64,000 bases of DNA, taken from Bilabrum cf. latius (lineage: Eukaryota). The translations under genes and the position numbers were made by a program. Within the stretch, counting starts at the first letter, position 1. The number at the start of each line of letters is the position of its first letter. The DNA is taken from NCBI GenBank assembly GCA_965178125.1, contig OZ237735.1, forward strand, positions 1,612,001 to 1,676,000, given 5' to 3'. Shown here in pieces: positions 565 through 61,895 of this stretch. Below the pieces are notes generated by a model, which ran no database searches, had not been told where the DNA came from, and was given only the letters and a program-made list of their open reading frames with translations.

Positions 565-3500
565 TTAAACCGAGTCGGCCCCTCCCTTGTAGAACAGGAA
601 GATCTCCCAGGTCCCGAAGAAGATCTCAAGGGCGACTTCTGCCACGATGAGCCAAATGACAATCCACTCGAGTCTGCTTGAGTGCTACGCCTCCAGCTGC
701 GTGGACAGCATCTCCAGAAGCTCCCGAATGACATCTAGCCGCTGGTTCAGGAGGTCAACCCGCCGCTCGATGTCCAAATAGGACTGCATCCTCTCGAAGA
801 TTGGCTCGAACTCGTCCGACTCCCAGAGGAATTCCGGGGTATCCAACAAGTCCGACGTGTTGATGGTGTTTCTCTCCACGAAAAGGAGCCCGATCTTCTT
901 GGACACGTCCAGCTCGGACAAGCCGACGCGCCCAGTCCTCGCTAGCTCGATCGGCACGCTCTGGGTCTTGGAGATCGTCCTGTTGACACGAGTCTCTAGC
1001 ACGCTCAGCTTGACGCTCTGTGCAAAGGCATACGAAGCAGCCAGCCTCTCGATGGGGTCGTTCGTCCCCAGCACCACCTCGTCGCTGACCACGCGGCTCT
1101 TGGCGCCGTGGCTGAACTCCATGTCGTCGCATTCGATCTCAGACACGGGACCCAGCACCAGGCCCCCGCCCGTCCCACTCGCCCCGCGGCCGAAGGCAGC
1201 AGACAGGAAAGTACCGGTACCGGTTCTGCCCGTGGCTACTGATGCAGACGAATCCTGCTTCCGGAGCACATGCTCGGGGGCAAGCATGGCGGCACCCATA
1301 GCACGCCTGCGGAGTCCATCGGCTCCCGCAGAGTGGTTGACGCTCACTGCGCTGCCGGTGACTGCTTGCATCCCTCGGTGGCTCCACGACTGCCACCCGT
1401 CGCCTTGCTGATGCTGCTGCTGCTGCTGCTGATGTTGTTGTTGTTGAAATCCGTGACCAGCACTGGTGGCGGACCTGCCCCCGGGTTTGCCCATGGCCAG
1501 CCGGGAGGACCCCAGCTGGGAGCGAGATGCACCACTGCCACCTGCACCTTGCCCAGGGGTCCCTGGCCCGACGCCGGAATCGGCTCCGGATCCCGCCAGG
1601 GAATCGTTCTGAAGCAGGGAGGCCGTCGCGGACGCACCACTGCCTGCTCCTCCGTGCAAGGACCCGATCGATCGGATGGGCGACTCCTAAGTGGCGGTGG
1701 TTGAGCTCGGGCCAAGCTCCAGCCCGATCCCGCTCGAGTCGTGGTGGGCAGCAGCAGCCAAAGAGCCATGCTTTCCCTCATGTGATCGGCCGCCGTCTTG
1801 TTCCTTGGTCTCCTCGGAGACGTTGTTCCCTGAGCCGGAGGAGCGGCTGCCCGCGTTGGCCCGCTCCAGCCGGATAGCGCGAACCTCTGCCTCAGCCTCC
1901 GCCGCGGCCGCTGCGGCCTCCTCTGCGGTCTGCTCCGCAACTGCTTTGTCGTAGAGGAAATCTATCTCTGGGTATATGCTGTCCCGGTCCCCGTCATCGT
2001 CGCTACCCCCGGCCTGGTCCCCTTCGGCATCCCCCCCCAGCGACTCCGAGTCCCCTTCCCCTGCGCCCCCGCCCCCGCCGCCCAGTGCTGCCAGCCGGTC
2101 GATCAGGGCGCGCTCCTCCTCCTCCCCGGGAAAGCCCCAGAGAACAACGGCACCAAACGGGAAGAAGAACACGTCTCGCCGCTCCATCGGGGTACCGACT
2201 GACTGCGACTGTGACTGCGACTGATGCTGTGCTCCAATCCCGGCGAGAGCGGGGGGTGTTCCCGCAGAACCCCCGAGGGAAAGCGGGGGCGGCTGCCCCG
2301 CAGCCCCACCCGTCGCGACCCCCAGCTACTCCTCGTCATCTGTCTTACCACCCCCGGGGTCCATGGCGCTCGCAAAGGGCGAGAGCGGGTGCTCCGGCGG
2401 CAGCGGCATCCGCGGCCTGGGTCTCGACGGCCCTTCCGTGTACGAGTGGACCACCTCTGTGTACATGGTGTGCGTCCACAGCAAGGGCCTGCCGTCCTCC
2501 GTCTCCGCAGGGCACACGGCCAGGTCGCTGGGCCAGCGGGCGGAGAGGACGCCCAGCAGCCTGGCGGTCGGGATCCTGGCGCAGATGCAGTACGCTGCAA
2601 GCCTCCCCTTGTACACCCCTACCCGCGCCGCCCGCGCCCGCCTCGCCCTCCTCGCGAGTCGAGCCGACTCCTTGAGCCGTCTGCTCCTCGCCTCCTCGAA
2701 CACGGCGTCGCCCAGGTGGGCAAAGGAACCGCTGCCGAGGGTCGTCGTCCCAGTCCCGCTCGTCAGCCCCCGCATCATCCCCTGACCACTTGGCACGCTG
2801 CCAGCGTCACCAGTCCGAGAGGCGCGCTGCCGGGAACGGCCGGCGGCCGAGGAGCTCTGGTGCTACTACTACTCATGCTACTTCTCCTGCTACTGCTACT
2901 GCTACTGCTACTGCTACTGCTACTGCTACTGCTGCTGCTGCTGCTGAGTCACTGCAGGAAAATCCCAACCGTCGAGCCCCGATGCCGTTGCGCTTGTTCC
3001 CTGGATGCCACTTTGACCACCTTCTCCTTGCAGCCCCGGCGCCAGTCCCCAGCCGCTGGGCAGACCAGCACCAGTCGCAGTGGAGCCGCTGCCGCCTGCA
3101 ACGCTACCAGCGCCCCCCGTGCTCCCGCCTGCAGCCGACCCAAAGGCGCCGCCGGGTGCCGGAGTCCCCTCCACGTTCAAGATGGTGCCCCCTCGCGCCA
3201 CCAGCGTGCGGTGGTTGTGGGTGTGCCGCGGGGCGTGGTGCACCGGCACTCCCGCGGCCATGGGTGCCGAAGAGCCTGGCGAGCGTTCTTGCGCACGGAC
3301 AGCGGTGGCCTTCAACCCAGGAGCAGCCCCAGTTCCGGCCCCGACCCCGGCCCCGGCCCCGGTTCCAGTCGCCCCCCCCAGCGACCCGCCGCCCTCGCCG
3401 TCGGAGAAGGATCGGATCACGCCCGGCGCGACGGCTGCGTGGCCGCCCAGCTTGTTCCGGTTTCGCCTGGACGACGAAGACATGAGCACGTCTTTCGCGC

Positions 3501-4932
3501 TTAGCCCCAGGACCCTGCCGGAATGCGCGGCGCCGATGTGCTGCGGAACATGCCGCTGCCGCGACCGGCTGGCGACGTCGCCATCCGATGCGCTGTCCAT
3601 GCCAGACGTCTCTCCCTCCGTCGCACTCGTCACACCCCCGAACTCCCCGGCAGAGTCGTAGGTCAGCGGGACCTCCTGCTGCTACAGGTGGGACCGCTGC
3701 GAGCCCGCCGGAGTTCCCGTTCCTGAGGTTGCAACCGGTGCAAAGTGGTGCATGGAGGCCAGTGGCGGCGTGGCCGGGACCATTGCGAGCAGTGGTGGGG
3801 CCCCTGCTGTTCCCTGTGCCACGTATGCGTATCTCCAGCCAGGTGGGGGCACCAGCGGCATCGGCTGCATCTGCATCGGCTGCTGCATGTCGTAGCTCTG
3901 GACCTGGCCGGGGAGAGGCTGCGGAGACTGCCCGGGGCTGTCGTGCGCCACGCTGCTTTGGGTGGTAGCGGTGCCACTGATTGGCGCTCCAGTGCTCGTG
4001 GCGGCACTCGTCACACCTGATTCTGCCAAGGTTGCGGCAGGTGGCGCCGACGTTGGTGTGGGCGCAGATACAACGGGCGTTGCAGGTTGCTGTGATGCGA
4101 CATAGGCAGGGTACTGCTGTTGCTGCTGCTGAAGTAGCTGCTGCTACCAATAGAACTGCTGCTGCTGCTACTGCTATTGCTGCAGGAGCTGAAGCTGCTA
4201 CATGTGTTCTTGCTGCGCGGCTTTCCAGCCAGGTCCTGCCTGGGGACCTTTGCCCACGACGCGCCGCCTGGCTGCCGCTGCTGCAAAGGTAGCTGGATGG
4301 GATCGGCGCTGCTGCTAGTGGTACATGGCGGCAGCGGCATAGGGCGCAAACTGTCCTTGCCACGGGATCGCTGGTCCAAACGGTTGCAGCCCTGCCGGTG
4401 TATCAGCCGCAAAATGCGGGAAAATGGCAGTTGATGTTGCTACACTCGGAAATTGAACCCCATCGTGACCTGCACCGGCCGATTGACCTACACTTGGGAT
4501 ACTTGTTGGGATCCCTTCGGTATCGAGTTTCCCATCGCTGACAGAATTCGCACCGGAGCTGGCATCCCCAGGACTACTTTGAGACTGAGACCCTGGCTGA
4601 GCTGTTGAGTGCATAGCATCCAATGTGTTTCCGTGCTAGTTGGAGCTCAGGTGGTCAGGAGCACCGTCCTCTGTGGACTTCTCGACAGCCACGGAAGCAG
4701 GGGGACTATTTCCAGAATTTAGGTCTCTCGAAGGGAATTCAAGCGATGGCTCGGGAACTAGTGGACTCTCTAATACACCTTCATCATCTACTTCGTAGCC
4801 CGCTTCAGAGGCTTGCTCAGACGCGGAAGTTGAGCCGGTTCGAGACCTGGATCGAGTATGTCCGCGCCCGGTAACTCCAGGCGCGGACCTTGCTATTCTC
4901 TTCGGCCCGTCTCCATCCAATGAGGAACTCAT
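565..4932 (-). CDS. DUF155 (RMD1/RMND1/Sif2 family) protein with long Gln-rich low-complexity N-terminus, ~1455 aa reading TAG as Gln
   Basis: ORF pieces 4636-4932, 4315-4623, 3682-4029, 2926-3633, 2326-2796, 1687-2187 and 685-1659 share one frame and are joined only by TAG (~21). Family motifs: DVFFFPFGAVVLWGF, ERLAASYAFAQSVKLSVLE, LLDTPEFLWE, YLDIERRVDLLNQRL, and past the TAG at 685, *HSSRLEWIVIWLIVAEV. Ends TAA at 565-567. Confidence 0.85.
2863..2946 (-). repeat. Coding poly-Gln microsatellite (CAG)6(TAG CAG)7, followed by further TAG codons
   Basis: Read directly in the DUF155 gene frame: six CAG, seven TAG-CAG pairs, then GAG AAG TAG CAT GAG TAG TAG TAG CAC. Confidence 0.95.
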
Positions 4933-5167
4933 GCAGTGAACGCGTGTACGGAAGCGCTGCGCCTTCGGTCGGTAGGTTCAGCCTTTCTGTGTGTGCTTGA
5001 CGAATCGGGTTCGGTTCGGTTCCGCGGCAGCGCCGCGGCAAAACAGCACGCCACAACCCCCTCGGCAAGCCCAACTAAACCGGCAGCGTCGCAAGGTTGT
5101 GGGATCACGCACACTGAATTGGTCCTCGATTTATTTGCAGGTCAACGTCAATCTGAACAGTGGCGCT

Positions 5168-7606
5168 ATGGTGGACACAGTAGATGGCCTGCGCAAGCAG
5201 GTTGCCAGGGTCACTGAACAGGGCAAGGCAGCGATCCAGGCAAAGCAATAGCAATTGTTAGAAGCGCAGCAGATCATCCAGACCCTGCAAGCAACCGGTT
5301 CTAAACAGAGTGCTCAGTGGGTGCTGGAAAAGGCGTTTCGCACGATGGTACAGAATAAAGTCGCAACGGCAAGCCTGAAAGTGCTGCTGCAACAGGTAGC
5401 AGATGAGGCCGGCAGAGAGGCGGAGGGTAACATTGCAACTGCAAAGGAAGTAGCGAGATAGCTTGGGGAGGTCTCTCGTGGGTCTGCATCACTTGACGTG
5501 GGAGGTGTTGCAGACTGGGCGATTGGAGGCAGGGTTGCTGCGTGTCCTCGCTGCTCGTTCCGGTCACCGTCACGCTCCAAATTCTGCGGAGGCTGCGGCC
5601 AGCCTATGCCAAGTTAGGGTGGACCGGGGATGTTTGGCAGGCAGTCAGACTCCGGGAGCGCAGCGGGCGGGGCAGCTGCAGCGGGTGCCAAAGGTAGGTA
5701 GGCCGGTGCGAGCAGGGGCGCCACGACCGCCGCCGGCTCAGGCGCAACCGCAACCGGCAAGGGAACGGCCGATGCGGCGACCCAGGCCTCACAGATGTCA
5801 ATCGGTTAGCTTAAGAGGCTTGTGGCTTCATCTAGCCTGCGATCCGAGGGCGAAACCGCGCTGGAGAGGAAGGACCTCGAGAGGCTTGCGACCAGGGTGC
5901 TGAGCGAGCAGCGAGCAAGTGCTCCGGCAGCGAGCAGCGGGGCGTCGAGCAGCAGCACAAAAGCTGCAGAGACTCAATCGGCAGCGAAGGGGAAAGGGAA
6001 AGGGAAGGGCAGAGCCAAGAGCAGAGCAAAAAGCAGAGCAAAGTCAAGAGCAAAAAGCCGTGGCAAGGGCAGGCAATCGGCCGCCGCGGGCACATCCGCC
6101 GCGCCCGCTGCATCCGGCACGATGCCCCCGGCAGTGCCCCCTGTGTCTGCGCCCGCTCCCGCAGCCAAGGCTGTCAAGTCCAGCAGCCAGCGGGCGAGGC
6201 ACGCCAGCTCTGGCTCAGCGTCAGGGTCTGCGTCCGTAGGGAGCGGGGATGGGCCCGGAAACGCATTCGATGCCCTGCGTCGAGGCCTGGAGGAAGAAGA
6301 GGCCAGGCAGCGGAAGAAGGAGGCAGACGCGGCGGCGGCGGCGGCAGCGGCGGCAGCGGCAGAGGAGGACGTACGGAGCCGGCGCGCGACCGGTGCACGC
6401 CGCAGGGGAGGTGCCATTGCCGAGGCTCGCAGGCAGGTGATGGCTCGGTAGGCAGAGGAGTAGGCCAAGGTGAAAGCAGAGCAGCAGGCCAAGGCGAGAG
6501 CAGAGGCGGCCAAGCGGGAAGAGGAGCAGAAGAAGGCGAGGGAGGCTGCGGCAGCGGCGGCTGCGCTGCGGGCCAAAGCGCCTGCGCTCGCGAAGGCGAG
6601 GGCACAGGCGGGGAATCCCTTCGGGTCTGCCGCTCCTGCAGCTGCACCCGCGCCGGGCAACCCATTTGGAGGTGGGAGCAGCGCGCGAGCCACAGCACCG
6701 GCCCCAGCGCCCGCTCCCGCTCCGGCGCCGGGCAACCCCTTCCCTGCTTCCACGGCCAGGGGCACTGCCGGGAGGGCGGGAGCCGCAGCACCGGGCAACC
6801 CCTTCGGCGAGGCTGCTTCCCAGGGAACAAGGCGGGGGCATGCCAAGTCGAAGAGCGCAGGCGCAGCTGCTCCGGCAGCAGCGGAAGCGAGCGGGGGCGC
6901 ATCACCAGCGCCCGGGAATCCGTTCGGAGGATCCACTCATCCGACCTCTGCGGCAGCGAGCGGAACTAGCGGAACAGGAACCGATTCGCCGCGCAGCTCC
7001 GCCACAGCCCCTGCCGGCAAGTAGAGGACGACGACGGCCCAGGAGGACGGCTTGGACGAGCACTGGGTCAAGGCACACACGGGCGAGGGCGTGCCGTACT
7101 ATTACCACAAGGAAACGAGAGAGACTCGATGGGAGAAGCCGGATCCGAAGGTGGGCAAGCAGATGGAGGCCAGGAGGCTGAGGGCAGAGGCAGAGAAGGA
7201 GAGGAGGCGGGCGGCGCGGCTGGCAGAGCTCAAATCCAGAGAGGCCACGCAGGGCAGCATGGCGGCAGAGAAAGAGGCCGTCAGCGCAGGGGTCTCCAAG
7301 GTGATCGACACGTGGGCGGCCAATGCGGGGTGGAGGGCCAGCAAGAAGAAGGCCATCGGGGGGCGCAGGCCCGTCACCATCCTTGCCACCCTGCTCGCGA
7401 CGCTCGACAGGATACCTGGCCTGCCGGCTGACAAGGTGGCGCTGGACCCTAGGTCTGCTGCGGACGGTGCGGTGAAAAAGGGTTACCTCAAGACGGTGCG
7501 GAAGATCCATCCGGACAAGCTGGCGGCTGGTGCGAGTGCCAAAGTCAGGGCGTCGTCCGAGATGGCCTTTGCCGTACTGTCTGCCGTCTACTCCGCCATG
7601 AGTTGA
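5168..7606 (+). CDS. Auxilin-like J-domain co-chaperone with zinc ribbon, NPF repeats and WW domain, ~812 aa (TAG=Gln)
   Basis: One frame from ATG 5168 to TGA 7606, broken only by ~8 TAG. Contains CPRC..FCGGCG, five GNPF motifs, a WW-like segment (HWVKAHTGEGVPYYYHKETRETRWEKP) and a C-terminal auxilin-type J domain (VKKGYLKTVRKIHPDKL..SEMAFAVLSAVY). Confidence 0.8.
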
Positions 7607-7813: not shown

Positions 7814-8539
7814 ATGGCTGCCGTGGATGGATCGCTCGCCAAAGCAGCCTCAGAGAGCAAAGTGGGACCCGAAGGTGCGACTGCAACTGCTGAGCCTTCA
7901 CCGGCACGCGCAGTTTCTGAGGTGTAGAAGCTATTTGAGGAGCACGGGGAGGGTGATTATATCGGAGAGGCTGTTACTCAGTTAGAACACGCCTTGCAAT
8001 GCGCAAAGCTGGCGAAGGATGCGGGCTCCCAGGATGTAGTCGTGATTGGTGCTCTCTTGCACGACGTCGGGCACATGATCGGGCTCCGTGAAGGCGGCGA
8101 AAAGGCCAATCGAATGGGTGGGTGTGGCGTTATGCATCATGAGCGCATTGGCCGAGCTTGGCTCGAAGGCCTTGGATTCCCAATCGCTACGGTCGAGGTA
8201 GTGGAGGGACACGTCCAGGCAAAGCGATACCTGTGCTGGAAGCACCCAGACTACCATTCAAAGCTGTCCGATGCTAGCAAGACCACGCTGACGTACCAAG
8301 GCGGCGTGATGACCGACGCGGAGGCGCATGCCTTCGTGCGAAGCCCGCTCTTCGACACAATCATCAAGATGAGGTCCTGGGACGAGAAGGCCAAAATCAA
8401 AGGGCTTGACGTGCCTGGCCTCGACGAGTACTCTCCGATGATAGAGACTATAGTGGGAACGAACCTGGAGATCAAGAGGGCGACCGCAAGAGCAATCGCG
8501 GCCCAGGGCAAGAAGGACGAAGAATCCAAGGCGGAGTGA
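7814..8539 (+). CDS. PhnZ-like HD-domain diiron oxygenase/phosphohydrolase, ~241 aa
   Basis: ATG 7814, one internal TAG (7925), TGA end. Motifs YIGEAVTQLEHALQCA, ALLHDVGH, HHERIG, HVQAKRYL, LSDASKTTLTYQGG and MRSWDEKAK match the PhnZ/TmpB-type HD family. Confidence 0.85.
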
Positions 8540-9393: not shown

Positions 9394-10209
9394 ATGATCT
9401 CAACAAACTTGTTAGCCAAGACTTCACGCGGTTGCGTGAGAACAGCCAGATTGGGTGCTGCACTTAGGTCGATCCAAAGCTGGTCTGGATGGTCTCCTCC
9501 TCCAAGCGCTGGAATCGGCCACACTGGATACGGCACCGAGCCTCAGGTCTTAAGAGCCACAACCATTCTATCTGTGCGAAAAGATGGCAAAGTTGCCGTT
9601 GTGGGTGACGGCCAGGTCAGCATGGGATCCATGGTCGTGAAGCCGAATGCTAGGAAAGTCCGGAGAATTGGTGACGGGAATGTCATTGTTGGGTTTGCTG
9701 GTGGTACCGCAGATGCTCTCACGCTCATGGAGCGCCTCGAAAGCAAGCTTGAGACGTACAGCAACCAGCTGCTCCGCGCCTGCGTTGAGATGGCGAAGGA
9801 CTGGCGCACTGAAAAATACCTGCGAAAGCTGGAAGCCACCATGATTGTGTGCGACAAGCACGTTTCTTTGGAGGTGACGGGGAATGGCGACGTGCTGTCC
9901 CCTCCAGACGGCGTCATCGCAGTGGGCAGCGGAGGAGCATACGCCCGAGCAGCTGCCGCCGCTCTCATGACGACCGACCTACCCGCCATGGAAATCGCCG
10001 AACGTTCCATGAAGATCGCCGCGGACATGTGCGTGTACACGAACCACAACTTTATCCGCGAGGAGATGGATGCAGAGGAGGCGCCCGAGGGTGCGGATCA
10101 GGGCCAGGAGCAGGACAGCTGGACCTCTGCGAGAGGCGGGGGCGGGGGTGAGAGAGGAAGGGACACAGATGAAAGCGACAGCGATTCGGAGGATGAGGGC
10201 AGGAAGTGA
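9394..10209 (+). CDS. hslV: Organellar HslV (ClpQ) threonine protease with N-terminal presequence, ~271 aa
   Basis: Mature N-terminus [23 protein letters not shown], plus [30 protein letters not shown] and [11 protein letters not shown]. Preceded by an Arg/Ser-rich leader. No TAG; ends TGA. Confidence 0.95.
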
Positions 10210-10536: not shown

Positions 10537-11548
10537 TCAGCCCACGATGATCTTTCCGTCGTCGGTGAACTTGTAAGGGGGGATCTCAAGGTTGAGCGGG
10601 GCGGGGCCCTTCCTGATCCTGCCGCTGCCGTCGTAGTGCGACCCGTGGCAGGGGCAATACCAGCCGTGGTAATCGCCGGCGTTGGCGATGGGCACGCAGC
10701 CAAGGTGTGTGCAGATGCCCATGACCACCAGCCACTTGGAGTCCTGCACACGGGCCGCGTCAGCCTGGGGGTCCTTCATGTCCGACATGGGCACTCCCTC
10801 CGCCTCTGAGATCTGAGCCGCGGTCCTGTGCTTGATGAACACGGGCTTTCCGCGCCACTTGACGGTCACCACCTGGCCCTCCTCGATGCCGTTGAGGTCC
10901 ACCTCGAGACTGGCCATGGCCAGCACGTCGGCCGATGCGCTCATCGTCGCGACGGCGTTGATGATCGCTAGCCTGACGGCAGACGCGTAGATGAACTTGC
11001 TAGCTCCCAGCACAAAATAAGTGAACGCTTTCTTGGAACCCTGGTTACCAGGCTCCAGGCGGGTCTTCTCGAAGTAGTGGTCGGCACTGCCGTAGTCCAT
11101 GCCAACCTTCGCAAGAGCGTCATCGGACTTTGCCCCGTGCATGCTCTCGTAGCACACCGCTGCGCAATCATAATTGAGAACTAATGTAGATCAACAAAGT
11201 AGAATGCGATACAGTTCAATTGCGGGCAGCCGAGACCGCGTTTCGTGCGCACATGCCGAGACATGAGCAGGGTACCGTTGCAAATCACAAGCAGAAGGGC
11301 TATTGCTTCCAATGCATGGCATGACAGCTCAATTTTGTGACAGTCGCTCATTTTGTGCTGAGAGTGCTGCAACACACCTCCAGCCTAGGCCCTTTTCAAC
11401 GATGAAGAAGTCCTGACGATTCAATCACCCTTTCGAAGTGCGACATTCACTTACCTGGTGTGGAAGCAACGGACCTAGCTCCAGTACGGAACATAGACGA
11501 TCCCATAGGGGCCACCCGGCGCGCTGCAGAGAGAGCTCGTCTCATCAT
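10537..11548 (-). CDS. UQCRFS1: Cytochrome bc1 Rieske iron-sulfur subunit, ~238 aa; exons 11548-11455 and 11159-10537
   Basis: CTHLGCVP and CPCHGSHYD Rieske boxes, KWRGKPVF, GPAPLNLEIP. Exon 1 encodes a mitochondrial-type presequence (MMRRALSAARRVAP). Phase-1 intron 11160-11454 (GTAAGT...GCGCAG). Ends TGA. Confidence 0.95.
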
Positions 11549-11699
11549 GGCGCAGCACAAGCACTTCTTTTTCCCTTGGCATCTCCAGCCTATCGAAAAT
11601 CACATTTTCAGTAACGTAATGTTTCAATCTTTATATTGTAACGAATAGTTACTTATTTACAGCACTTGCTGTTGCACATTTAGCCCTTTCTGCCGAAAT

Positions 11700-13760
11700 A
11701 TGAAGCCAAAACCGTCAGGCGAAGAAACTAGATTCTTTAATCAGGTTTGTGCCGTGCTGCTTACCTTTTTTGTGAGATTTTATCCAATTTTGACCATGAT
11801 GCGGCTGAAGATACCGTCGGACGGGCAACTTGACCCAACGTTCATATGATTCGCGCATTGATAGGGGGACCCTCTCCTATTGCCGCAGGCATATGCGTTG
11901 CTGCATATGAGTAGGAAGGCCCTGAGTGAAGTGAAGTCCACGCTAATCGCTCTTTGGTCCTAGCCGGGTGGTGACCAGCAGCTATTCCATGGGGATTCCG
12001 CAGCTCACAGTGCCAAAACTTTCTCGTAAGTTGTAGAGTCACACTCTGGTATTGCTTTGATGGCTGGACAGGTTCTCGTGCAGCCTCGATCTCTTTTTGT
12101 TCGTGTCAGCTGCACTGCTGGCGTCTCACCCGTTCGAAACGCTCACTTCTGCAGTGGTACCCTTGACTTGGTGTTCATGTGGACGTATGCCGCCGGTCTT
12201 GTCCTGCTTGGTGACGTGGGCGACAGGTTAAACCTGAGATGGGTCCTCGCCGTCGCGATGTGCCTCAGTGGCATCGTCACGGCTCTCTTCGGCCTGGGAC
12301 CCTACTGGACCCAGGTGCAGAGCCCAGCATTCTATGCCACAGTGTGGGGCCTGAACGGGTTTGCGCAGAGTGCCTGCTGGCCTGCCGTGGTTGCAATCGT
12401 GGGCAACTGGCTCGGGAAGGGCGTGCGGGGCGGGGTGATGGGCCTGTGGTCCGGCAACGCAAGTGCCGGGAACGGGCTCGGGGACCTGCTCGGTTTCGTT
12501 GTTCTCCAGCACACGGACCTTGGCTGGCAGTGGTGTCTGCTCATCAGCGGGATGGCGTTGTTCCTTGGTGGCATTGTTATTGCCGTGGCGCTCCGGGCCC
12601 ACCCGAACGATGTTGGCCTGCCTGCTCACGCGACCGCTCGCGGGCTCGAGGATGGTGACCCGGACGAGGACGAGGTTCAGCACGAGGGCCAGGATGACAT
12701 AGTTCCCATGCCCTCCCCTGGCTTGTACGTAGGCTTGCAGCAAGACCCCGGCGGAGGCTCTACCGGCGTGGACCAGGAGTCTCAGATGCAGCAGGGCCTG
12801 CTGGAGGCCGATGGGTTCGGGGCGGTCGGGCCATCTAGCAGCGGAGGTGGTTATCTTAAGAAGCAAGGAACACATCAGGGAGAGACAGAAGAAGAAGAAA
12901 AAGGAGAAGGTGGTGCGATCGGGCTGTGGGCGGCGCTGATGCTGCCGGGAACCATCGTGTTCTCGTTGTGCTACATGGCGCTCAAGAGCACCAACTACGC
13001 GTACTTCTTTTGGCTCCCGGATTACCTGCAGGTAACGCTGCATGAAGACAGCGGAGTAGCGAATCTGTCTTCCTTATACTACGATATAGGCGGGATCATG
13101 GGCGGGTTCATCGCAGGCATGCTCACCGACTGCGTGGCACGGCGCTCTCCGATCGTGGTGGGCCAAATCGGACTGGCCGTGCCACTCATCCTGGTGTTCG
13201 GATTGGTCGCAAAGTCCAAGCTGGCGGTGGTCGCAACCTCAGCGGCTGTGGGACTCATGCTCGGCGGGGCGGCCAACCTGATATCCTCCGTGTTCGCGGT
13301 GGAGATCGGCGAGGAGGTGGCAAGGCAGGAAAGGAAGGCCGCGATGAAGGGTTCCGCAAATGGGGCGCCGCGCAAGAGGGTGTCTGCGAAGCGGTCCCTC
13401 GCGACCGTGGCTGGAATCATCGACGGGGCGGGTTCCCTAGGGGCTGGCGCGGTGCTGCAGATCGTGGGGCTGCTCCCGACCGACAAGCTGAGCTACCTGC
13501 TCGCACCGCTGACGGCGGTGAGCGCGCTCTGCCTGGTGGGAGTGCTCGTGAAGGATCTTCGTGCCATGACGGGGTGTTGCGGGGGCGAGGACGGGTAGGG
13601 TGGCTCGGGACGGGATGGGGGCAACTTGAAGCTGACTGGAGGTGCGGCTGGCTTGGTTGAGCCGTCGGACCGGCTGCAATCTTCGTCGATCAACGGAGGT
13701 GGCGGACGGCCGAGCTTGGGACATTCAGATGCGTCACTGCAGCGAAATGCCCTTTATTGA
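11700..13760 (+). CDS. MFS sugar-phosphate/glycerol-3-phosphate transporter (SLC37/GlpT-like), ~604 aa; exons 11700-11771, 11889-12025, 12155-13760
   Basis: Spliced N-terminus VLLTFF|AYALLHMSRKALSEVK. Motifs GDVGDRLNLR, NGFAQSACWP, GGVMGLWSGNASAGN, YAYFFWLP, YDIGGIMGG, ATVAGIIDGAGSLGA. Introns 11772-11888 and 12026-12154 are GT-AG and phase-consistent. TAG at 11961 and 13596; first TGA at 13758. Confidence 0.88.
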
Positions 13761-49530: not shown

Positions 49531-51528
49531 ATGTCAAATAAATCATCTGGCGCTGCTGGATCTAAGCTGACTCCCCCAAAACTGAAGCGATCCGAGAGTG
49601 TTTTGGCATTCTCCGAATGGCTCGCGTCGCCTTTGTGCGACCGTGACCTCTACTTCAGGTCGGTTGCAGATGGGATCGTGTATAGCCGAGAAATCATGGC
49701 AGATTCCGTCACCCAGCAGTTGATGGCAAAGTGGGAGGGAATGATCAGCGAGTCGCCTATCACGGCGACCTTCGACGAGATCTGCATCAAGCTATGCAAA
49801 GTAGCGGCAGGAGATGAGCTGAAGGATGTGAGCATTGATAAGGTCAAATCGTGGCGCATTGAGCTGCCGCCCCTGGGGTCTGGATGTGCGTTCTCCGCGA
49901 TGGCTAGAACGAGAGCAGCCCTTCGCGAGTGGCAGCACCCGTTGCTGGCTGCTGCACTGCAGCAGTGCGCAGAAACGGACATTTCAAACTGTCAGGTAAC
50001 CTGCGCGATGATCTGCAAGACCGCATCGAACTGCGATGCCGCAAAGCGCTTCATGTTCACGCTCCTCGTGAAGCGAGCAGTCTCCAGCCTGCCGGAAGGC
50101 GGGCGTCTCAAGCCCCAGGTAACAGCAGCTCCAGCTGCGGCAGCGGCTGCAATGGCCGATCCTAGTAGCGCGGCCCCGGCAGTATCGGATGGCGACAAGG
50201 GCGATTCGGCGGCGTCGGGCGCCGGCGCAGGCGACGCGGCGACAGCATCTGCCAGCGATGCGAGCAGCACCGGCATGGACCCCGCCGTGGCCAGAGAAAT
50301 CCTGCGGAACTTTTGCATGGAGCGGATCGACGAGCTGAAGGAGAAAGCTCTTGCCTCCACGTTCTACGAACCGGCCCTTTGGTACCTGGAGACGACGGGC
50401 AGCAGCACCTGCAACTTCGAGGTGCACGCGGCGAACGTTTACCTGAGCTTTCTGGCGGTGGTGCTGGGCGTGAGAACTTCGCGGCAGCCCTACATCGATG
50501 ACCCCAACTGCACCCTAGGGCTGGTGCACTGGAGGCACAGCGTGCCCGTCACTGCCATCGAGGCGTTCCAGCGGCCAGAGTACCTGGGCAAGGGCTGGAT
50601 GGCTATCGCTAAGCTCAAGGGGCTGGGCGTGGACCGGACGGGGGACCCCCGCAGAGCAAAGCTCGTGGCGGAGATCGAAGAAGCGACCGCCAAGAAGGTG
50701 ACGGACGTGGAGGGCGCGGGCGCGATGGTCCAGCAGGCGGAAGACAAGCTCAAGGCATACGAGAGGAAGGCCGCCTGCACTCGATGGGCCCTCTAGGACG
50801 GAGAGGTGGAGGCCTGGCTCGCAGGCAAGGAGCCATACGAGGTGGTGCATGCAGCGGCGAGGGCGGCTGCATCTGGTGGGAGCGACGTGGCCGGTGCTGG
50901 TGCTGCCACTACCGGTGCAGCCAGTGGTGGCGCGGCCGCCGCCAAGGAAGCAAAGAAGCCGGCGAGCGGTGAGGGAGACAAGCCTGCGCCCGATGCGACC
51001 GAAGAGCCAGGCCCGGTATCAAAGCCCCCGAGCAGCCGCTTCCTGCAGAAAGGAAGCACCCCTCGCGAAGCGGTCCGGCTGCTTGCCGACGGCACCGCTC
51101 CCGCGTGGCAGATGAGAGCTGCCCGGGGATACGCCGCCCATTTCGCGTCCTACTTTGCACCGCATGCCGCGCTGCAGAGGCTCGTCGTCGCTTGCAACCA
51201 GGACGGGGGTCCCAAGAGCGCGCTGATCCGGGTGTTTGAGGCGATGCGGGAAGAGCAGAATGCGCTGCACAAGGAGGCGAGCACTGGCGGCGGAGCAAGT
51301 GCTTCGGCCAACGCGCCAGAGGGCCGGCCGTGCCTGTGGCCGCCGCTGGAGGAGTCACTGTCCGTGGACTTCTTTTTCTTCGATGACGAGGACTACGAGT
51401 TCCTGACGCACAATGCGGTGCGCTTCTTCTACTACCTTGGGATGGTCCGCGAGTCGCACGTTGCCAAGGCGGCCCGTGATGCTTGGGCGGCCTTCGATGC
51501 TGCAGAAGCCGGGTCGCCGATCGATTGA
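49531..51528 (+). CDS. Hypothetical protein, ~665 aa
   Basis: ORFs 49531-50796 and 50806-51528 share a frame and are joined by one TAG. Coding-like codon usage; ends TGA; no family recognised. Confidence 0.75.
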
Positions 51529-51760: not shown

Positions 51761-53839
51761 ATGGCAGCAAGCGGAGCAGGCGAGTCGGAGTCAAAGGTCG
51801 AGCAGAGGGACGGATTCCACGTGCAACAAGGAGCGCAGCCTGAAGCTTCGTACGCTGCCGACAAGAAAACGCTGGAGCAGATCCTGGAGGCATCTCGAGG
51901 TAAGCCACGCCGTTTCCATCAGCAATCCAGTGCACGAGAGGCATGCGTCATGTACCTGTGCGCACATTTCCCCAAGTATCCCAAGCACAGATGGCGAGCT
52001 CGCAATGCTGCGGGTGTTACTGGACGGGCAGAGCGACAAGTCCAAGACTTCCCTGAAAGAGCTGTGTCCCCGGCTACGGGACGGCAACAAGCGCACGGTG
52101 CTGCATTTTGCAGCAGCAACAGATCGTTCTGATACCGTACAGTACCTAGTGGTAGAGTGTTGCAGCGATTTGATCGACATGAAGGACTCGAGCGGAAGCA
52201 CCGCGCTCCTGCTGGCAGCAGCAGCAGGCTCGGCTCTAGCCTCAAAGTAAGCGGGTTTTACGTCCTTAGCATTCACAACCTTTACATCTATTTCAATGCT
52301 TGTTTTCATGTTCCGTACCCGGCGCTGCTGGCTCGCAGGAAGCTGCTGGAGCTTGGTGCTGACGTGCATGCAGCGCGGCCTAGCGGTGAGCAAGCAATTC
52401 ACCTGGCAGCCCGAAACGGGCGCACTGACGTGCTGGCAATCCTCTTGGAGCATGGTGCGGATGGATCGTCCATGGGCGACCACGGCACTGCCATCCACGA
52501 GGCCGCTGCCGACAACGAGTTGGAAGCCCTGCAGATGCTCCTGCGAGCGGTCGACAAGAAGGCCGGCCAGGCCAGCGGTAGCTCCTCGCAAGCGGAACAC
52601 GAGGCCGCCGCAGTCTCATTTCCGCCCTCTACTGCTCTTGCAGCGGAGCTAAACAGGCCCAGCCTGAAGGGTCCGACGCCGCTGGTGATGGCAGCAGCCA
52701 TGGGAGCGGAGAAGACCGCCGAGCTGCTGGTGCGGGCGGGCGCCAGGCTCGACACCGGAGCCGCCCTGGGAGGCCTCTCTGCATTGCACCTCTTCGCGGA
52801 CAAGGGCAACGCAAAGGGAGTGAAGGCCGTTCTAGAGTGTCCCGGGGGAGACGCAATGCCACCGCTCCCGTCTGAGAGACCGGCAGCCCCCGCCGCTGCA
52901 GAGCCGGTGCCGTCATCGCCAGCGGGTGCGAGCGGCGGGGCGGGCCAAGCCGACTCGAGCTCTCCTCAAGAGGATTCTATCGAGTGGAAGTCGGAGGAGC
53001 GGGCCCGGCTGGCCTGCTGCAGGCGCAACGCGGACGGCCTTATCCCACTGCAGCTCGCGCTTGCGAGTGGGCACACAGACGCAGCCGGGCTGTTGCTGGA
53101 GGCGAGCCGGAGGGCGCTGCCCGAGGAGCAGAGGGGCATGGATCTCGATGAGCTGATCAAGGTGTACGCCGAGCAGGGCGAGAAGGACAAGGAGGCGAGG
53201 CAGCTGGCGCGGGCGCAGAAGCGCGCAGAGAAGAAGAGGAAGGACGCGTCCTCCTGGAACCCCCGTGACCCCCCCAAGCACCCGGTCCCTGGGTCCCCCG
53301 ACGGTGACGACTACGCTGACCTCGGTCCGCTGCCAGACGCTAGCAGCATCAGCGAGTCCAGCAAGAGGGAGGCAGCGGAGTGGAAGTACAGGGGGGACGG
53401 CGCGATGAAGGCGAAGCGCTTCATGGAGGCGGTGGGCTTCTACAAGCAGGCGCTGCAGAGGGACCCGCTCAACCACGCCATCTACTCGAACCGAAGCATG
53501 GCGCTGCTCAGGCTCAACCAGGCCGCCATGGCGCTGGAGGATGCCCGCTGGTGCAGGCGGCTGGCCCCGTGGTTCGTGAAGGGGTGCTACAGGGAGGGCA
53601 TGGCTCGCATGGCCATGGTGGACTTCGACCGCGCCTCGCAGGTCTTCTGGACGGCCTACTGCATGGACAACGAGAACTACGAGATGGCAGAACTGTTCAA
53701 GGAGGCCGTGGCCAAGGGCAAGGCCGTGGCTGCGAGGGAGCGTGGGGAGTCGGTTAGTGACAGTGAGGACGAGGACGAGGCCGCGGGCGGTGGTGCAGGC
53801 GGGGACAGGGAGCTCGAGACGGCCAAGATCGACGAGTGA
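51761..53839 (+). CDS. Ankyrin-repeat plus TPR protein, ~631 aa; exons 51761-51899, 51991-52246, 52339-53839
   Basis: Ankyrin motifs RTVLHFAA, GSTALLLAA, GEQAIHLAARNG, TAIHEAA, TPLVMAA, SALHLFA. TPRs KYRGDGAMKAKRF..YSNRSMALLRL..KGCYREG. Introns 51900-51990 and 52247-52338 (GTAAGC..CAG) reconcile three ORF frames. Confidence 0.85.
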
Positions 53840-54138: not shown

Positions 54139-57100
54139 TCACACGAACGTCGCAACCGTGCTCTGTCCACCGGGAGCTGCCTTGGCGGGCCCGGCAGCCG
54201 AAGCTCCGGCGGCCACGTTGGTGCTTCCTCGGCTTGCCGGAGGAAGCTGGGCGCTGCTGCCTGTCGCGGCAGCGCTGTTGGAGGCTTCGTTTGCAGGCGC
54301 TGAAGCCGGCTGCTTCGTCCCGCCACCGGGACACATGCCGTTCATGTACAGCGCTACGCCTGCGCCGATGCCGACCACGAGCAGCACTGCGATCACCACG
54401 CCGGCAATTGCACCGCCGCCCATGCCGTCGCCGTCGTCGGGGTCGACATCGTCGGATCCAGGGTTGCCGGAGGCACCGACGACGTCGGCCGCGACGCCGA
54501 CTCCAGAGTTGCTGCTGTCCAGTGTGACCACGGCAGTCTAGTCCACCTGGGCCGCGAGCACGGTGTCGGCTGCCATTGCAGTGGCCACCTGCCCGTTCTG
54601 CACCGCAGTCGCGGTGCGCTAATACGCTTCGGTGGCGTCTGCCTCGTCGTCCACTGCGAGCACGGTGGTCACGTACGCCTGCTGCTGCTGCCCCTGCAGC
54701 GTGCGCGCCTCGCTGCCCGATCCAGCAGAGGCCCGCCTCGCTACCGCGCCCACACGGAAGAAAACCTTGGCATCCGGCGCGGCGCTTCCGAACGCGGCGT
54801 CGAGCAGGATGTCGGCGAAACGGACGGAGGACGAGCAGTCGAACCCAGCGGCGGCGCTCGCGGTCAGGCGCAGGTTGAAGGTGAGGCTCACCACCATCTG
54901 CGTGGGCGTGAACTGCACTGCTGCCCGCCCGCCGACGCTGTCCGTGCACTCCTCGGCACCGTCGTCGATCGGGCTGCGCACCGCGGTGCTTGGAAGTGGC
55001 GTGGGTGCCGGCGTGGGAGTCGGAGACGGGGACGGCGCGACGGGGTCGTTGAAGGGCGAGGCCAGGGACAGGAGGTGCACACGGCCCATGTCTGGCTCGC
55101 CCACGGCAAGCACAGAGTCGATGGAATTTGCCCCCAGGAAGTTGCCAAGCCCTGCCAGCCCGGATGCAAAGTCTGGACGGTCGTCCTGGATGGGGTGCGT
55201 CAGCCAGCTCGTGGCCACGCTCGAGATGTCCCTAGTGGACCGCAGGGAGGCGTTGGCACTATTGGAGTCAAAGTCGAGGAACATGATCACTGCAGCAGAC
55301 TAGGAGCGCGGCTGCGGCGGCGGTGAAGGCGATGGCGACGGCAGCATGGGCGGGTTGAAGAAAAAGTCGTCGAATTGCGGCGGCGGGTTGTCGTCCGATC
55401 CCTTGTCAAGCTGCGCTCGCCTCTTCAGTGCCTTGTTCGGGCCCCTGCCTTCGGATCGACCGACAGCGATCTCAGGGAATCCATCGCCGTCGAGATCACC
55501 CAGGTTGGCGAGGGACAGTCCCATATACCCGCCTGACACCAGTGGCAGGCCGGCCGCGCCTGCCACTGCCTGCCCCGTGCGAGTTAGCATGGTGACTTCG
55601 TCCACGGTCCAGGCAGGAACGTCCATTGCGAGCAGGAATACAGCTCCATCAGAGTTGGAATGGCCCGGGGCACCGACTGCGAGCAGCGCTGGCACCGTAG
55701 GCGTGGTGCTGTCGCGCACGAGGACAGCACTCTGCCCGAATCGAGCGTTCCGTCCGAGAATACCGGTAGGAAAGCCGCCCTGGCCATCCGTGATCTCTCT
55801 CTTCCACTCCACAGTGCCGTCAACTCCGAGCCCCAGTAGCATCAGCACGCCACTGGCCACCACGGTGCGTCCGTTCTGGTTCGGGGCCCCGATAGCCACC
55901 GTCGCGTAGCGTGCGGCCGGTCCCGCCTGCAAATCATCGTCCGTAGTGTCGTCGTCCGTGGTGTCGTCGTCCGTAGTGTCGTCGTCCGTGGTATCGTCGT
56001 CCGTAGTGTCGTCGTCCGTGGTATCGTCGTCAGTGGTGTCGTCTCCGATTGCGACCAGCAGGTTTCGGTGCTGCAGCTCCCGCGCCTTGATTGGATCTAG
56101 CGGCGGCTCGGCCAGCGTGTCTGCCTTCCGGATGAGCGTAACCGACGCGCCGAACGCAGCCCTATGTGAGAGACCCATGGCTAGCCCGCCGTGCACCCGG
56201 GAGATCTGCTGCACTCCCTTGGCCGTGCCGTTGCGGTGCATGAAGATCACGGCGGCTGAACCTTCGCCAGTGCAGGCCATGAACGTGGTGCAAGAGCCGT
56301 GGGCATCATCATCGTCCGTGGTGGTGTCGTCCGTGGTGTCATCGTCGTTCGTGGTGTCATCGTCGTCCGTGGTGTCGTCATCATCGACAATGGCGACTCT
56401 GAGAGATCGGGCAAGGGACTAAACCCTGCGATCCAGCGGAGCCCCCACGAGCACGTCTGGCACCCCATCCCCGTCCAGGTCCCCGATGCTGGTGATCTGC
56501 TCAAAGGCCCGGCTGCCCTGATCGAACAATTCGGACGGGATGCCGTTCATACCGTTCATGAGCTCGACCGATGAGATGGCTCTGGTACCACTGCGTGGCA
56601 TCAGCAGCACGTGCATGCTGCCCTCCTGCGCCCCAGGAGCGGAGACCAGCAGGTCCTCGTGCCCGTTACCGTCGATGTCGCCCGCCGGCGCCACATTGAA
56701 GCCGAACTTGCGAGCCACGAGCTGCTGCTGCGTTCGGCCTCCAAACGTTTCTTCGTCGCCGGGAATCAGCACCTGAGAGAGTACCACCCCCGGCCCGCGG
56801 GTGGGCGCGGCGGTCGGAGTGGGCGAGGTCGAGGCGGATGGCGACGGGGATGGGCTCGCGGATGGCGACGGGCTCCCGGAGGCCTGCACCGCCTGTTTAC
56901 GCCCTGTAGTGGATTCACCTGCGAGATCAGTTGATGCAACCAGCATGGATATTCGTGTGGGGCCGGTTCGGAGCAAGCAGAGATCTGGCAGGGTAGCCGC
57001 ACGGTGCGAGGCTATGCTGCAGCCTACAAGGTGATTTTGCACTGCATTTATCCACCATAGACTAAATATGTACTAAATTTTCAAAATCGGTTGTTTGAAA

Positions 57101-57963: not shown

Positions 57964-59782
57964 TCACTTTCCAAGCTTCCCATTTGCTCCAGACCTGCTC
58001 ACCAACGCGCGAGCTGCCACGACCCGCTGCGAATAGCTCATGTGGCCCTCCTCCATCTCGCTCCTCCGCAGCTCAGAGACCTTGGCTCCGTCCCCAGTCG
58101 TAAACACCACCTTCTTCACGAACGAGCACCGCCGAATCACAGCCAGACAGAGAGCGCACGGTCGGGAAAAACCCAGGGTATCAGGTGCCGCCGGCAGGTC
58201 AGCCACCCTGACTCCCCTCCGGCCGGCCTCCTCGCGGCGGGCCATCTCGTCCCTCGGCGCGCCCCCGTCCACCCCCCCCTCACCCTTGAGCGTCCTCACC
58301 ACCGTCAGAGTCATGTCGGGAACAGACGACAGGAACTTGCGCACCGAGGCCGGCTACCGGGACTCCCACTCGTCACACGGTCGCAGAGCCGCCACGAGGT
58401 GCCTTGACCTCGACTTGATCCCCGTACCGGACACCAGCGCCCGCCTGGCCGCCGAAGAGATCCCCCTGGGGTCGCTGCCCCCCGCTACGGGGTCCTCCAG
58501 GTGCAGCCCCCCGACGGGGTCCACCATCACCTGGTGCACCGCAGAGCTGGCCATCCCATCCTACTCGCCGCGGCTCCTGGCCGCGCTCTTCTTGCTCGCG
58601 GACCTTGTCTTCTTCTTCGATCGCAGCATCGCGCGAACGTCCATGGCCGGCTGCTGCTTCTTGCGGCGATGGCGGCGGTTGTTATTGGTGTCGCAAGCAG
58701 TGGCGGTGGCGGCGGGCAGCGGTGCGCGGAGCTCGGCGTGCTCGGGCTGTGCCCTCTGCTGGCGGGCACCCTTGCTGCTCTTCATGCACCCGGCATCATC
58801 GGCATCATCGGCGTGCTGCTTGCCACCGCGGGCCCGTGCCTTCTTCGTTGGCCACCCTGTCTCGAGGGAACACGAGGCGGAAGAGCCCTCTACCCTACGC
58901 CACGGTGCCCCCCCAATGCTAGACGCGTCCTCCGAGCTGCTCGGTGGTGCGCCAGACGCCACGGAAAGCGCGTTCTCGTGCGCAACTGAGGATCGACGCA
59001 CAGCCTCGAACACGCCCGGCTCGGAAGGCCCGGTCAACGATGACCGCACGGACTCTGCGCCCACGGAGCACGTGTCGCTACTGCTGCTGCTGGCGGCGGG
59101 CGCAGCGGGCGCGCTGCTGCAGGGCAAGGCGAGCGCATACTCGAACGGGGCTGAGCACAGCAAGGCTCGCGTGGCGGGGTCCGCGAGGCGGTGGGCGGCG
59201 GCTACATGCTTCGATGCAGGATTTGAAGCTGACTGATTGCATGCCACGCTCAATCCTGCAGCAGAGTCGTGGCTAGCCCGCCGCTTGGCTCGCCGGTATC
59301 GCCTCGCCTTCTTGCGCGGTCGCTGCTGCTTCTCATCCGTCAGGTTCTACAGCTTCAAAACATTTAATACACGGCCTACTCAGCAAAGACCGCGTCGAGA
59401 ATAGCTCAAGCTCGGCGTCCTAAAACACGGAGCTTGGCAAGGGCTTGCCTGTGACGGTGGACAATCAGCGCGAAAAGATGCATCAATGACGTTGGAAATG
59501 CAGTGGAGCTGTCATACGCTTTGGCTCGAACGATAGACTACTAGCCGTCTCACCATTGACACGGAGGCGCATCAAGGCATCGATCTCAGCGTGCAGCGAG
59601 CACTCAAGGTGGCCGGCGGGGGCAAACGGAGAGTTTGTCCCAACCGCTGCTACCTTGCCACCGCGGGTGAGCACGGCCCCGTGAGCTGAAGGCAGTCCGT
59701 TCTCGACGGCTGCGCTGGATGCAATTGCAATAGAGCGCTGCTGCGAAGCAGTTGGCTTGTTCTCGATGGAAACTGTCGGCAT
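57964..59782 (-). CDS. Zinc-dependent cytidine/dCMP deaminase-like protein with ~400-aa insertion, ~546 aa; proposed intron 59376-59553
   Basis: N-half HGAVLTRGGKVAAVGTN..CSLHAEIDAL and C-half LTVVRT..SRPCALCLAVI..VKKVVFTT. Joined by a phase-1 GTGAGA..TAG intron (acceptor tentative) and in-frame TAGs at 59347, 58561 and 58354; ends TGA. Confidence 0.72.
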
Positions 59783-59909
59783 TTTGTACTCTGTTGGCCT
59801 CCTTTTCTCTTCTGCGGCTGCATTGGAAACCGCGGAAAGTTGCACTCGTCACATCGATGACTAAAACCGGAACTCCACCGCGAGAAGGAAGAAGGTTAAA
59901 CTCGTGCGA

Positions 59910-61895
59910 ATGGAAGGCCCAAAATGGGATACTTTTTGCTAGTTTGGGGTGGATCGATGGAAAACTAGTGCAGGCTTTCAGCAATGCGGAATTAGGCAGG
60001 AAACGGTCGCCCTGTCCGCCAGGGCCTCGGCATGGCTTCGCAGCAGCGGTTCTGTCGTGCTTCCGGAGCTTCCCAACAAGGACAAGGCGGCCCTCACCGA
60101 TCCCAGGTTCGAAGAAACGGAGGAAACAAGCAGCGACGAGAGCGAGACAGGTGAAACGATCCAAGAGAGCCGTGTCATATCGCTGGCGGAGGACGAGGCA
60201 AGGATTGAGGCAGCCATGAAGCGCCTAGGCTGCGACGCAGGCAGCGACCCCGGAGTGGTCCCTCGGTTGCCATGGACAGCACCAACCGACGCCATTTGGG
60301 CGACTCGGCACGAACTTCAATGCAGGAGCGTAGGAGAGGTATGGAACTTGCTTGCATGCAGCGAGGTCCTTAGCTTTGACCTGGGCAAAGCAAGAGAACT
60401 CATTCGCTAGAATCAACCAAAAGAGGATACAAAGGACGTAAGATGTGGATCTGAGGCTGCTGGGAGCGCCACTAAGGCAGCTGCAGAGGGGAGTACAGCG
60501 GAGGGGGCAGTGACGGAGCTGAGCACCGTAACGCTCGCTCTCCGACCGTACGTGCCGCAGCTGCGCGACAGTCCGCACATGGTCTTCAGGATATTTGCTT
60601 CCACAAAGTGCGGGTCATGTGCTGATCTCAGCCCGCACATCCTTGCGATCGTCAGACGTCACCCGGCCCAGTTTGGCGCCACCTTTGACCGACCGCATGG
60701 TTCACCGATGCCCCCTCCAAAGCACATCGCCGCCAGGGCGATGCAAATCGAGGAAGCGCTCGGCATTGATGCAACGAATAGCAGCGTCGAAGCTACAGCT
60801 GCTGTGCCGAGAGTCGACGGCGCCGGCGCGCCTCCAACCAGCCAAGCGACTACAGCTGGCAGTGGCGGTGAAGCAGACTAGGAGCCCGATGGCATCACGC
60901 TCGCCGAGTGCCTGCGCGCCGAGGCAGAGTTGCTGATGAGGGCCGTATTTGCCGATGCAAGTGCTAAACAAGATCCATCGCCCGTTGGTTCGTCACATGC
61001 AGCAGCACCAGCAGAAGCACCGGCAGCTGGAGCAGCAGGGGCGGGGGAAGGAGCGGGGGCAGGGGCTGGCATGACCACGCCAATGCCATCTTCAAAGGTG
61101 CAGCAATCGGCAGCCAGATCCATCCTGAGGCATGGGCGGTTCGCCCTCGACGTGTTCTGGGACTGGGACGGCGTCGTGCCTACCGAGGCAACAGAATTTG
61201 ATTCCGAGTTGGAACACGGCGCCTAGACATCTGTCTCCTCCCCGTCGCGCGGCGGGAAGCGAAGAGAGCAGGCGATGGCCCTGGAGGAGGTGCTCGCCCG
61301 TCCCCAGGCGGAGTACGGCCGCAGCCGCGGCGCGGCCCGCGGCAGGCTCGTGCTGCTGGACGTGTCTCCCTGGTGGGAAGGCGTGACGGAGACGCCGTGC
61401 ACGACCTATCGCGAGCTCATGGACCTCGAGCAAGTGGCTGCTGGTGGTGGCACCACCGCCGACTATCACACGGCCCCAGGCATCCCTGTGGTGAGGCTGA
61501 CCCTCCCCACCCCCTCACCACCTGCCTACCCCCCCGCTGGATCCCAGGCGGGCCCTCGCTAGGCAGGAGCAGGAGAAGTAGAGGGCAAGCAGGTGTCGGA
61601 GGGGGGCCAAGGAAAGGTGTCTGCCGATGGCTCGACCTTCGTGCCGGCGGTGAGAGCTCGACCCGCGGCGAGCCACGCCGTGCCTCTAGAGGTAGCCACT
61701 CTGCTTGAGGGCGGGCGAGTGGACGGCATGCTTGCGACAGTTGGGGGGGCGTTGGATGGAGAGAGGGGTGACAAGAGCTTCGGTAGCGACCCAAGGGAGA
61801 GGCTCGCGCAAGGAGGCATGCCTGACTTAGTGTCTTTGCTGGAAGGAGCCTTGGCACGACAGCGACTGGAAGACAGCGAAGATGCTTGTGGTTGA
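59910..61895 (+). CDS. Divergent CDC123/D123-like ATP-grasp protein, ~661 aa (TAG=Gln)
   Basis: FC*FGVDRW, VVPRLPWTAPTDAIW..LQC..VWNLLACSEVLSFDL, LALRPY..PHMVFRIF, FALDVF and LVLLDVSPW..YREL follow the order of D123 motifs. Five in-frame TAG; ends TGA. Confidence 0.7.

Follow-up and report, generated by a model that had tools for sequence, protein, structure and literature searches.

The nuclear genetic code used in a 64-kb stretch of DNA from Bilabrum cf. latius (contig OZ237735.1 of assembly GCA_965178125.1, positions 1,612,001 to 1,676,000 of the forward strand; the whole of this stretch is called the window below) probably differs from the standard code in one of the three stop codons. 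UAG appears to be a sense codon, most likely for glutamine, with UGA as the main stop and UAA as a minor stop, both of which would terminate translation. When TAG is read as sense, the 20 complete genes of the window end in TGA (18) or TAA (2; at 565-567 on the minus strand and 49330-49332 on the plus strand) and none ends in TAG, the same genes and ends that an earlier note on this DNA had reconstructed from the letters alone. TAG is by contrast frequent inside genes, making up about 0.5% of codons, and is evenly spread through the reading frames.

In-frame codons were counted in 19 gene models comprising 17,467 codons, a set that leaves out three intron-containing genes (PP2C, deaminase-like and mL41-like). 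These models contain 88 TAG, 0 TAA and 0 TGA, beside 119 CAA and 576 CAG; the three omitted genes hold about 1, 3 and 3 further TAG, respectively, and no TAA. The earlier note had reported no internal TAA against about 95 TAG, together with regular use of CAA, and both statements stand on the recount. TAG is present in 17 of the 19 models, many of which retain long open frames and Pfam domains. A comparison of frames 0, 1 and 2, made on a first set of 19 open reading frames (ORFs) that still included a doubtful one at 1-549, gave counts of 0, 31 and 38 for TAA, 0, 270 and 289 for TGA, and 87, 101 and 94 for TAG. TAA is therefore kept out of the reading frame like TGA, and TAG is not: across frames, TAA behaves like TGA and TAG like any sense triplet.

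Support for TAA as a working terminator, resting on two genes, comes mainly from the C terminus of the RMND1/DUF155 protein. In an alignment, ten DUF155 homologues end 13-23 residues past an EWIVIWLIVxE motif; the window protein ends 23 residues past this motif at the TAA, and would end 50 residues past it if read through to the next TGA. A metagenomic relative, L001, has 89% protein identity to the window DUF155 but is well diverged at silent sites, because only 103 of 220 aligned codons are the same. Its protein ends in ...FLFYKTGS followed by TGA, three codons before the window TAA, and no alignment of the two DNAs is possible further on. In the window, the 26 codons that follow TAA have a codon log-odds score (LLR) of -5.0 and a GC content at third positions (GC3) of 0.50, compared with a mean LLR of 6.4 (standard deviation 4.6, 5th percentile -1.0) for coding windows of that length and a range of -7.7 to 6.7 for in-frame stretches after TGA stops. 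Together, C-terminal length, the L001 stop and the downstream codon scores make a fair case that DUF155 translation ends at 565-567. Runs X5, X6, X9 and X11, the last two from relatives about 7-9% different, were compared with window positions 1-20000, and none of the 40 listed differences, out of 1,514, lies near this codon. The DUF155 protein of a relative from Logan (P0242, 96% identical) has the same final residue as the window protein, and Logan relatives of the TPR-like gene, the second with a TAA end, share its final ...GSKEK (P0243, at 92% identity, and P0244). These shared ends are weaker than they seem, because the proteins were evidently predicted under the standard code. The earlier note had observed that the DUF155 C terminus falls where expected, as its position within the family range confirms, and that each TAA end is followed closely by an in-frame TGA, which is so at 27 and 6 codons. 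Its central claim, that TAG is sense whereas TAA and TGA are excluded from frames and serve as gene ends, agrees with the in-frame counts, the gene ends and the end of DUF155.

The scarcity of TAA ends, both of which have a close downstream TGA, would also suit a code in which UAG is reassigned and UAA is a nearly unused, poor or leaky stop, leaving UGA as the sole practical terminator with a nearby TGA as back-up. How many TAA ends should be seen depends on the reference chosen. Non-coding sequence (7.3 TAA and 15.4 TGA per kb) predicts about 6 TAA ends in 20, more than the two found, which favours a poor UAA; coding intervals, in which every TAA is out of frame (1.6 TAA vs 10.9 TGA per kb), predict about 2.6 in 20, and two fits. 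A downstream back-up stop is not special to TAA, because many genes that end in TGA are likewise followed by another stop a few codons on, and the end position is conserved in three relatives. We consider a leaky UAA unlikely.

A code of the table 6 type, in which UAA and UAG both encode glutamine, UGA alone stops and TAA is rare through GC3 bias, has some general features on its side: the window is 63% GC, TAA is the rarest of the three triplets on its plus strand (151, vs 400 TAG and 734 TGA), and each TAA end is followed by an in-frame TGA no more than 27 codons on. We estimated how many sense TAA such a bias should leave by multiplying the 88 TAG by the A/G third-position ratio of each of 13 NNA/NNG codon pairs (0.13 to 0.67). 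The expectation runs from 11.6 (CTA/CTG) to 59.3 (GCA/GCG), with 18.2 from CAA/CAG, and the Poisson probability of finding none is 1e-5 to 2e-26 across pairs and about 1e-8 from CAA/CAG. GC3 bias alone thus fails to explain the missing TAA, and the status of TAA as a non-sense codon in this sample is strongly supported.

The zero count is partly circular, because ORFs had been defined as ending at TAA or TGA, and each gene was re-read from TGA to TGA. Between start ATG and terminal TGA, no in-frame TAA codons occur apart from the two taken as stops, which lie 27 and 6 codons ahead of TGA; by our own arithmetic, the chance that two randomly placed TAA would both lie so near a gene end is (20x27/17,500)^2, or about 1e-3. 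All other TAA in these TGA-to-TGA reads come before the start ATG, where the codon scores look non-coding (-0.05 to 0.11 per codon, vs 0.08-0.36 in coding sequences). In PP2C, a single TAA lies in frame with exon 2 but within an inferred intron, 35561-35694, which is needed anyway because two different frames must be joined; this intron was deduced from its GT..AG ends and the restored LTIANAGDCRAVL motif rather than from RNA. A six-frame coding-potential scan of the window found no unexplained coding segment broken by TAA. No in-frame TAA at a glutamine position was found in the 17,467 window codons or in about 770 codons of L001 and a second metagenomic relative, L002, and the codons past the DUF155 TAA neither score as coding nor show conservation beyond the L001 stop. 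With its two in-frame TAA at extreme 3' ends, the window makes a table 6-type code very improbable. As a separate observation on TAA placement, the triplet stands directly or one codon ahead of the start ATG in three genes (47596-47598, 21770-21772 and 49525-49527) and, going upstream from the start, is the first in-frame stop met in 5 of 18 genes, which may reflect an A-rich start context.

Similarly improbable is a context-dependent code of the Condylostoma type, with UAG as sense inside genes and as terminator near their 3' ends. One 1940-codon gene does have a TAG two codons before its TGA, and in-frame TAG occurs 1-13 codons past the stop in several genes. However, none of the 20 genes requires a TAG end, and chance alone would place about 0.3 TAG in the last three codons of 20 genes (own arithmetic). 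TGA and TAA are never in frame, in contrast to known ambiguous codes such as those of the Condylostoma and Blastocrithidia type; no codon was found both as sense and as terminator, and the three stops do not all occur in frame. The generic alternative that the standard code is kept and TAG is removed by RNA editing, or marks pseudogenes or assembly errors, has nothing specific in its favour and is extremely improbable, because X5 and X6 contigs that look transcript-derived, judged by their joins across four GT..AG-bounded gaps (9061-9157, 11160-11454, 11772-11888 and 12026-12154), match the window over TAG stretches with no other letters (the seven listed X5 pieces span at least 28 TAG codons by our own coordinate check), because independent metagenomic relatives keep TAG or exchange it with CAA or CAG, and because the TAG-bearing models keep their long open frames and Pfam domains.

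Glutamine is the best-supported meaning of TAG and, on a modest number of informative sites, the most likely one. TAG at codon 1416 of DUF155 is aligned to Q in nine of ten homologues and to S in one; P0242 has Q at this codon, which must therefore be CAG or CAA under a standard-code call, and L001 and L002 retain TAG. L002 has TAG in place of one window CAG and CAA in place of one window TAG; other pairs lie in a low-complexity part that does not align reliably. In the polyglutamine (polyQ) tract of DUF155, TAG is interleaved with CAG as a (TAG CAG)n array. More generally, TAG has a CAG or CAA neighbour in 19 of 88 cases (0.216), close to the 0.183 of glutamine codons and above the 0.049-0.088 of all other amino acids. 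Runs X5 and X6 have contigs that match the window exactly, except that a strain variant in X6 has nine extra in-frame bases, CAGCAGTAG, behind position 15241 in the polyQ stretch of the PH/WW gene; the two sequences differ in length there and are otherwise the same.

Several points weigh against this assignment or against UAA as a stop. Most of the polyQ neighbour signal is due to DUF155, and without this gene it falls to 6 of 67. Codon 58 of the Nrap gene, a TAG, is aligned to R in the distant human NOL6 and fungal Utp22 (PDB sequence search), and codon 403 of the PH/WW gene, also TAG, is H in P0245 (90% identical), the sole close relative spanning a TAG among the 32 matches of the PH/WW protein search. 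We read both sites as neutral, because H is one base from CAG and R/Q exchanges are common at such a distance. A PDB search with D123 gave an aligned stretch that spans no TAG codon. Termination at TAA rests on two genes with a TGA 6 or 27 codons downstream, and a conserved sense TAA or TAG would give the same apparent ends in the Logan relatives. All these results draw on a single 64-kb window and on about 770 codons of relatives.

In-frame TAG, or a break at a TAG position, is also seen in at least two diverged relatives, namely L001/L002 and the Logan contigs that encode P0001 and P0243, of which one measures 49 kb. On the sequences compared, the code change thus belongs to a lineage and is not peculiar to one strain. 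Database proteins of the relatives (P0121, P0241, P0243 and P0244) end or start at window TAG positions, and the P0245 fragment ends where the relative has a stop absent from the window; standard-code gene calling, which cuts at TAG, explains why these proteins are fragmented. L001 also differs in gene order: downstream of its DUF155 gene lies a gene for a beta-barrel protein (1064-2041, minus strand; VDAC-like by eye) that ends in TGA and is not downstream of DUF155 in the window.

The host of the window is probably a relative of bicosoecids and not Cafeteria itself, because the best named homologues of GH35 and DUF155 in the two protein searches with named matches are from Cafeteria (Bicosoecida, Stramenopiles), at 42% identity for GH35 (Cafeteria roenbergensis) and 59% for the DUF155 domain; the placement is provisional and draws on two genes. 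A GH35 protein search of genome contigs gave no match, and the corresponding Rieske search gave alphaproteobacterial loci only (L003-L012), which are irrelevant.

About 87% of the window is coding. Its gene set is eukaryotic, with sparse introns, and includes RMND1/DUF155, WW, PH, HD, MFS, EF-hand, GH35 with ricin domains, Nrap/NOL6, D123/Cdc123, FG-GAP, TIG/PA14, ankyrin/TPR, a Rieske protein and an HslV-like subunit (Table 1). The PP2C-like gene was identified by eye through its motifs, as were the HAE and PCxxC motifs of the deaminase-like gene, whose second exon has no Pfam match. The small gene with an intron at 9061-9157 encodes a candidate mL41-like mitochondrial ribosomal protein. In the Rieske gene, a separate upstream exon provides the presequence. 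The DUF155/RMND1 protein is unusually long, at 1455 residues vs 183-405 in the aligned homologues, and its domain is split by hundreds of low-complexity residues (Ala/Gly/Ser runs and polyQ). The 3542-residue EF-hand protein consists of about ten repeats of a module that closes with a motif resembling F.EWYN.GG....W.ELL..RKWP. Its linkers are acidic, one module contains canonical EF-hands, and the repeat is covered by no Pfam family. At the left edge of the window, ORF 1-549, with three TAG, was first taken as a gene and then dropped from the refined count, as its translation looks like junk. Within 1-376, X5, X6, X9 and X11 pile up (mean word depth of 79-571 in the first bin, vs single or low double figures in most bins) with many contigs, variants and loose ends, which looks like a multi-copy or repeated element.

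Table 1. Features of the window, with in-frame TAG counts and stop codons
Feature	Position	Strand	Details
RMND1/DUF155 gene	565..4932	-	1455 codons, 21 in-frame TAG, TAA end at 565-567; Pfam DUF155, E 5.8e-40
Putative TAA stop of DUF155 gene	565..567	-	Next in-frame TGA 27 codons on, at 484-486
TAG codon 1416 of DUF155 gene	685..687	-	Conserved Gln position
(TAG CAG)n hexanucleotide array in DUF155 polyQ tract	2861..2945	-	Tandem Repeats Finder (TRF) period 6, 14.7 copies; codons 669-690 listed
WW-domain gene	5168..7606	+	8 TAG, TGA stop
HD-domain gene	7814..8539	+	1 TAG, TGA stop
mL41-like small gene, unannotated	8780-9260	-	Intron 9061-9157 (X5, X6 contigs), 3 in-frame TAG, ends TGA TGA
HslV-like proteasome-family gene	9394..10209	+	0 TAG, TGA stop; adjoins Rieske gene
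Rieske iron-sulfur protein gene	10537..11566	-	Two exons, intron 11160-11454 (contig joint), 0 TAG, TGA stop
MFS transporter gene	11620..13760	+	Introns 11772-11888 and 12026-12154; in-frame TAG; TGA stop
PH/WW gene	13871..16099	+	742 codons, 9 TAG, TGA stop; polyQ stretch 15230-15274 with 3 TAG
EF-hand gene	16171..18819	-	5 TAG, TGA stop
GH35 beta-galactosidase with ricin domains	19133..21703	-	0 TAG, TGA stop
1940-codon gene	22620..28442	+	6 TAG, one of them two codons ahead of TGA stop
Nrap/NOL6-like gene	28554..33971	-	5 TAG, TGA stop
PP2C-like gene	35130..36344	+	Inferred intron 35561-35694, 1 TAG, TGA stop
Repeated EF-hand protein gene	36466..47094	-	3542 codons, 10 TAG, TGA stop
TPR-like gene	47599..49332	+	577 codons, 5 TAG, putative TAA end at 49330-49332; next in-frame TGA 49348-49350
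665-codon gene	49531..51528	+	1 TAG, TGA stop
Ankyrin/TPR gene	52472..53839	+	0 TAG, TGA stop; start probably further upstream
FG-GAP (integrin-alpha-like) gene	54139..56946	-	4 TAG, TGA stop
Deaminase-like gene	57964..59848	-	Two frames (intron needed), about 3 TAG, TGA stop
D123/Cdc123-like gene	59910..61895	+	5 TAG, TGA stop followed directly by TGA
TIG/PA14 gene	62219..64000	+	3 TAG; runs off the window

The code proposed here, with UAG as glutamine and UAA and UGA as stops, is formally that of NCBI table 15 (the 'Blepharisma' code), in which TAG is Q and TAA and TGA are stops. Table 15 is reportedly also applied to TAG-recoded phages (PMC9523058), whose setting differs in having the bacterial release factors RF1 and RF2 where the window organism would have a single eRF1. 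Table 6-type codes, found in ciliates, hexamitid diplomonads, some ulvophytes, Streblomastix and Amoeboaphelidium, likewise have UAG as glutamine and UGA as a stop; TAA is sense in those lineages, whereas the window has no in-frame TAA against 88 TAG.

The earlier note had described UAG-only changes as rare and known from Iotanema, a rhizarian and phyllopharyngean ciliates. Two papers (PMC11687900, PMC5304391) support this and widen the list: they describe nuclear uncoupling of UAG from UAA in the rhizarian exLh (Leu), Iotanema (Gln), Scotinosphaera (Ser), several phyllopharyngean ciliates (Leu; Gln twice) and Protocruzia (Gln), as well as one ciliate with UAA as Lys and UAG as Glu. The exLh and Scotinosphaera codes are uncoupled as in the window, with a different amino acid. 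A close parallel among these is the fornicate Iotanema spirale, in which UAG alone has become glutamine, UAA is kept as a stop and a tRNA-Gln(CUA) is the predicted decoder, as we suppose for the window organism (PMC5304391). It differs in having UAA as dominant stop, shown by transcriptome evidence, whereas the window is GC-rich, ends 18 of 20 genes in UGA and 2 in UAA, and comes from an unrelated lineage. UAA is likewise described as the dominant stop in exLh and the preferred one in phyllopharyngean ciliates (PMC11687900, PMC5304391). Hartmannula sinica, Trochilia petrani and Protocruzia tuzeti have likewise recoded UAG alone to glutamine and use it widely as a sense codon, with UAA retained, but they prefer UAA and use UGA least, according to PMC11687900. 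This preference is reversed in the window, which makes the status of UAA there much harder to read from stop usage.

By the reasoning applied to Iotanema and exLh, a tRNA with a CUA anticodon reads UAG and not UAA, and eRF1 must lose recognition of UAG (PMC5304391); in Iotanema, eRF1 carries a T32G change in its GTS motif, and L69A is reported for the eRF1 of exLh, both being residues in contact with the G at the third position. A tRNA-Gln(CUA) and an altered eRF1 N domain would be expected here because the case can be argued likewise. In the organism of the window, UAG would be decoded by a tRNA-Gln with anticodon CUA that is unable to pair with UAA, and eRF1 would have lost or weakened its recognition of UAG while keeping that of UAA and UGA. 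The 64-kb window itself holds no tRNA gene (ARAGORN) and no eRF1 gene.

The proposed code is of the Iotanema type (table 15) in form, but would belong to an additional lineage and stand against an uncommon compositional background. A literature search, with supplementary tables outside its scope, found no report of nuclear UAG reassignment in stramenopiles or bicosoecids, and the code changes that surfaced for stramenopiles were mitochondrial only. We lean slightly towards the view that this is the first nuclear code change in Stramenopiles, a reassignment of UAG alone to glutamine in a Cafeteria-related heterotrophic lineage that would comprise the window organism and two or more diverged relatives from metagenomes and Logan assemblies, in a GC-rich setting with UGA as the main stop.

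Rare nuclear codes that split UAG from UAA bear on how a single eRF1 discriminates stop codons and on the evolution of the code, and this case adds a new major group, as indicated by stramenopile homologues, with base composition and stop preference opposite to those of the compared cases. If the reading is correct, eRF1 in this lineage would read UGA and a rarely used UAA and ignore UAG, providing a test case for discrimination at the third position and for capture of UAG independently of UAA under GC pressure. It would also mean that annotations and metagenomic protein catalogues of the lineage are fragmented by gene callers that assume the standard code.

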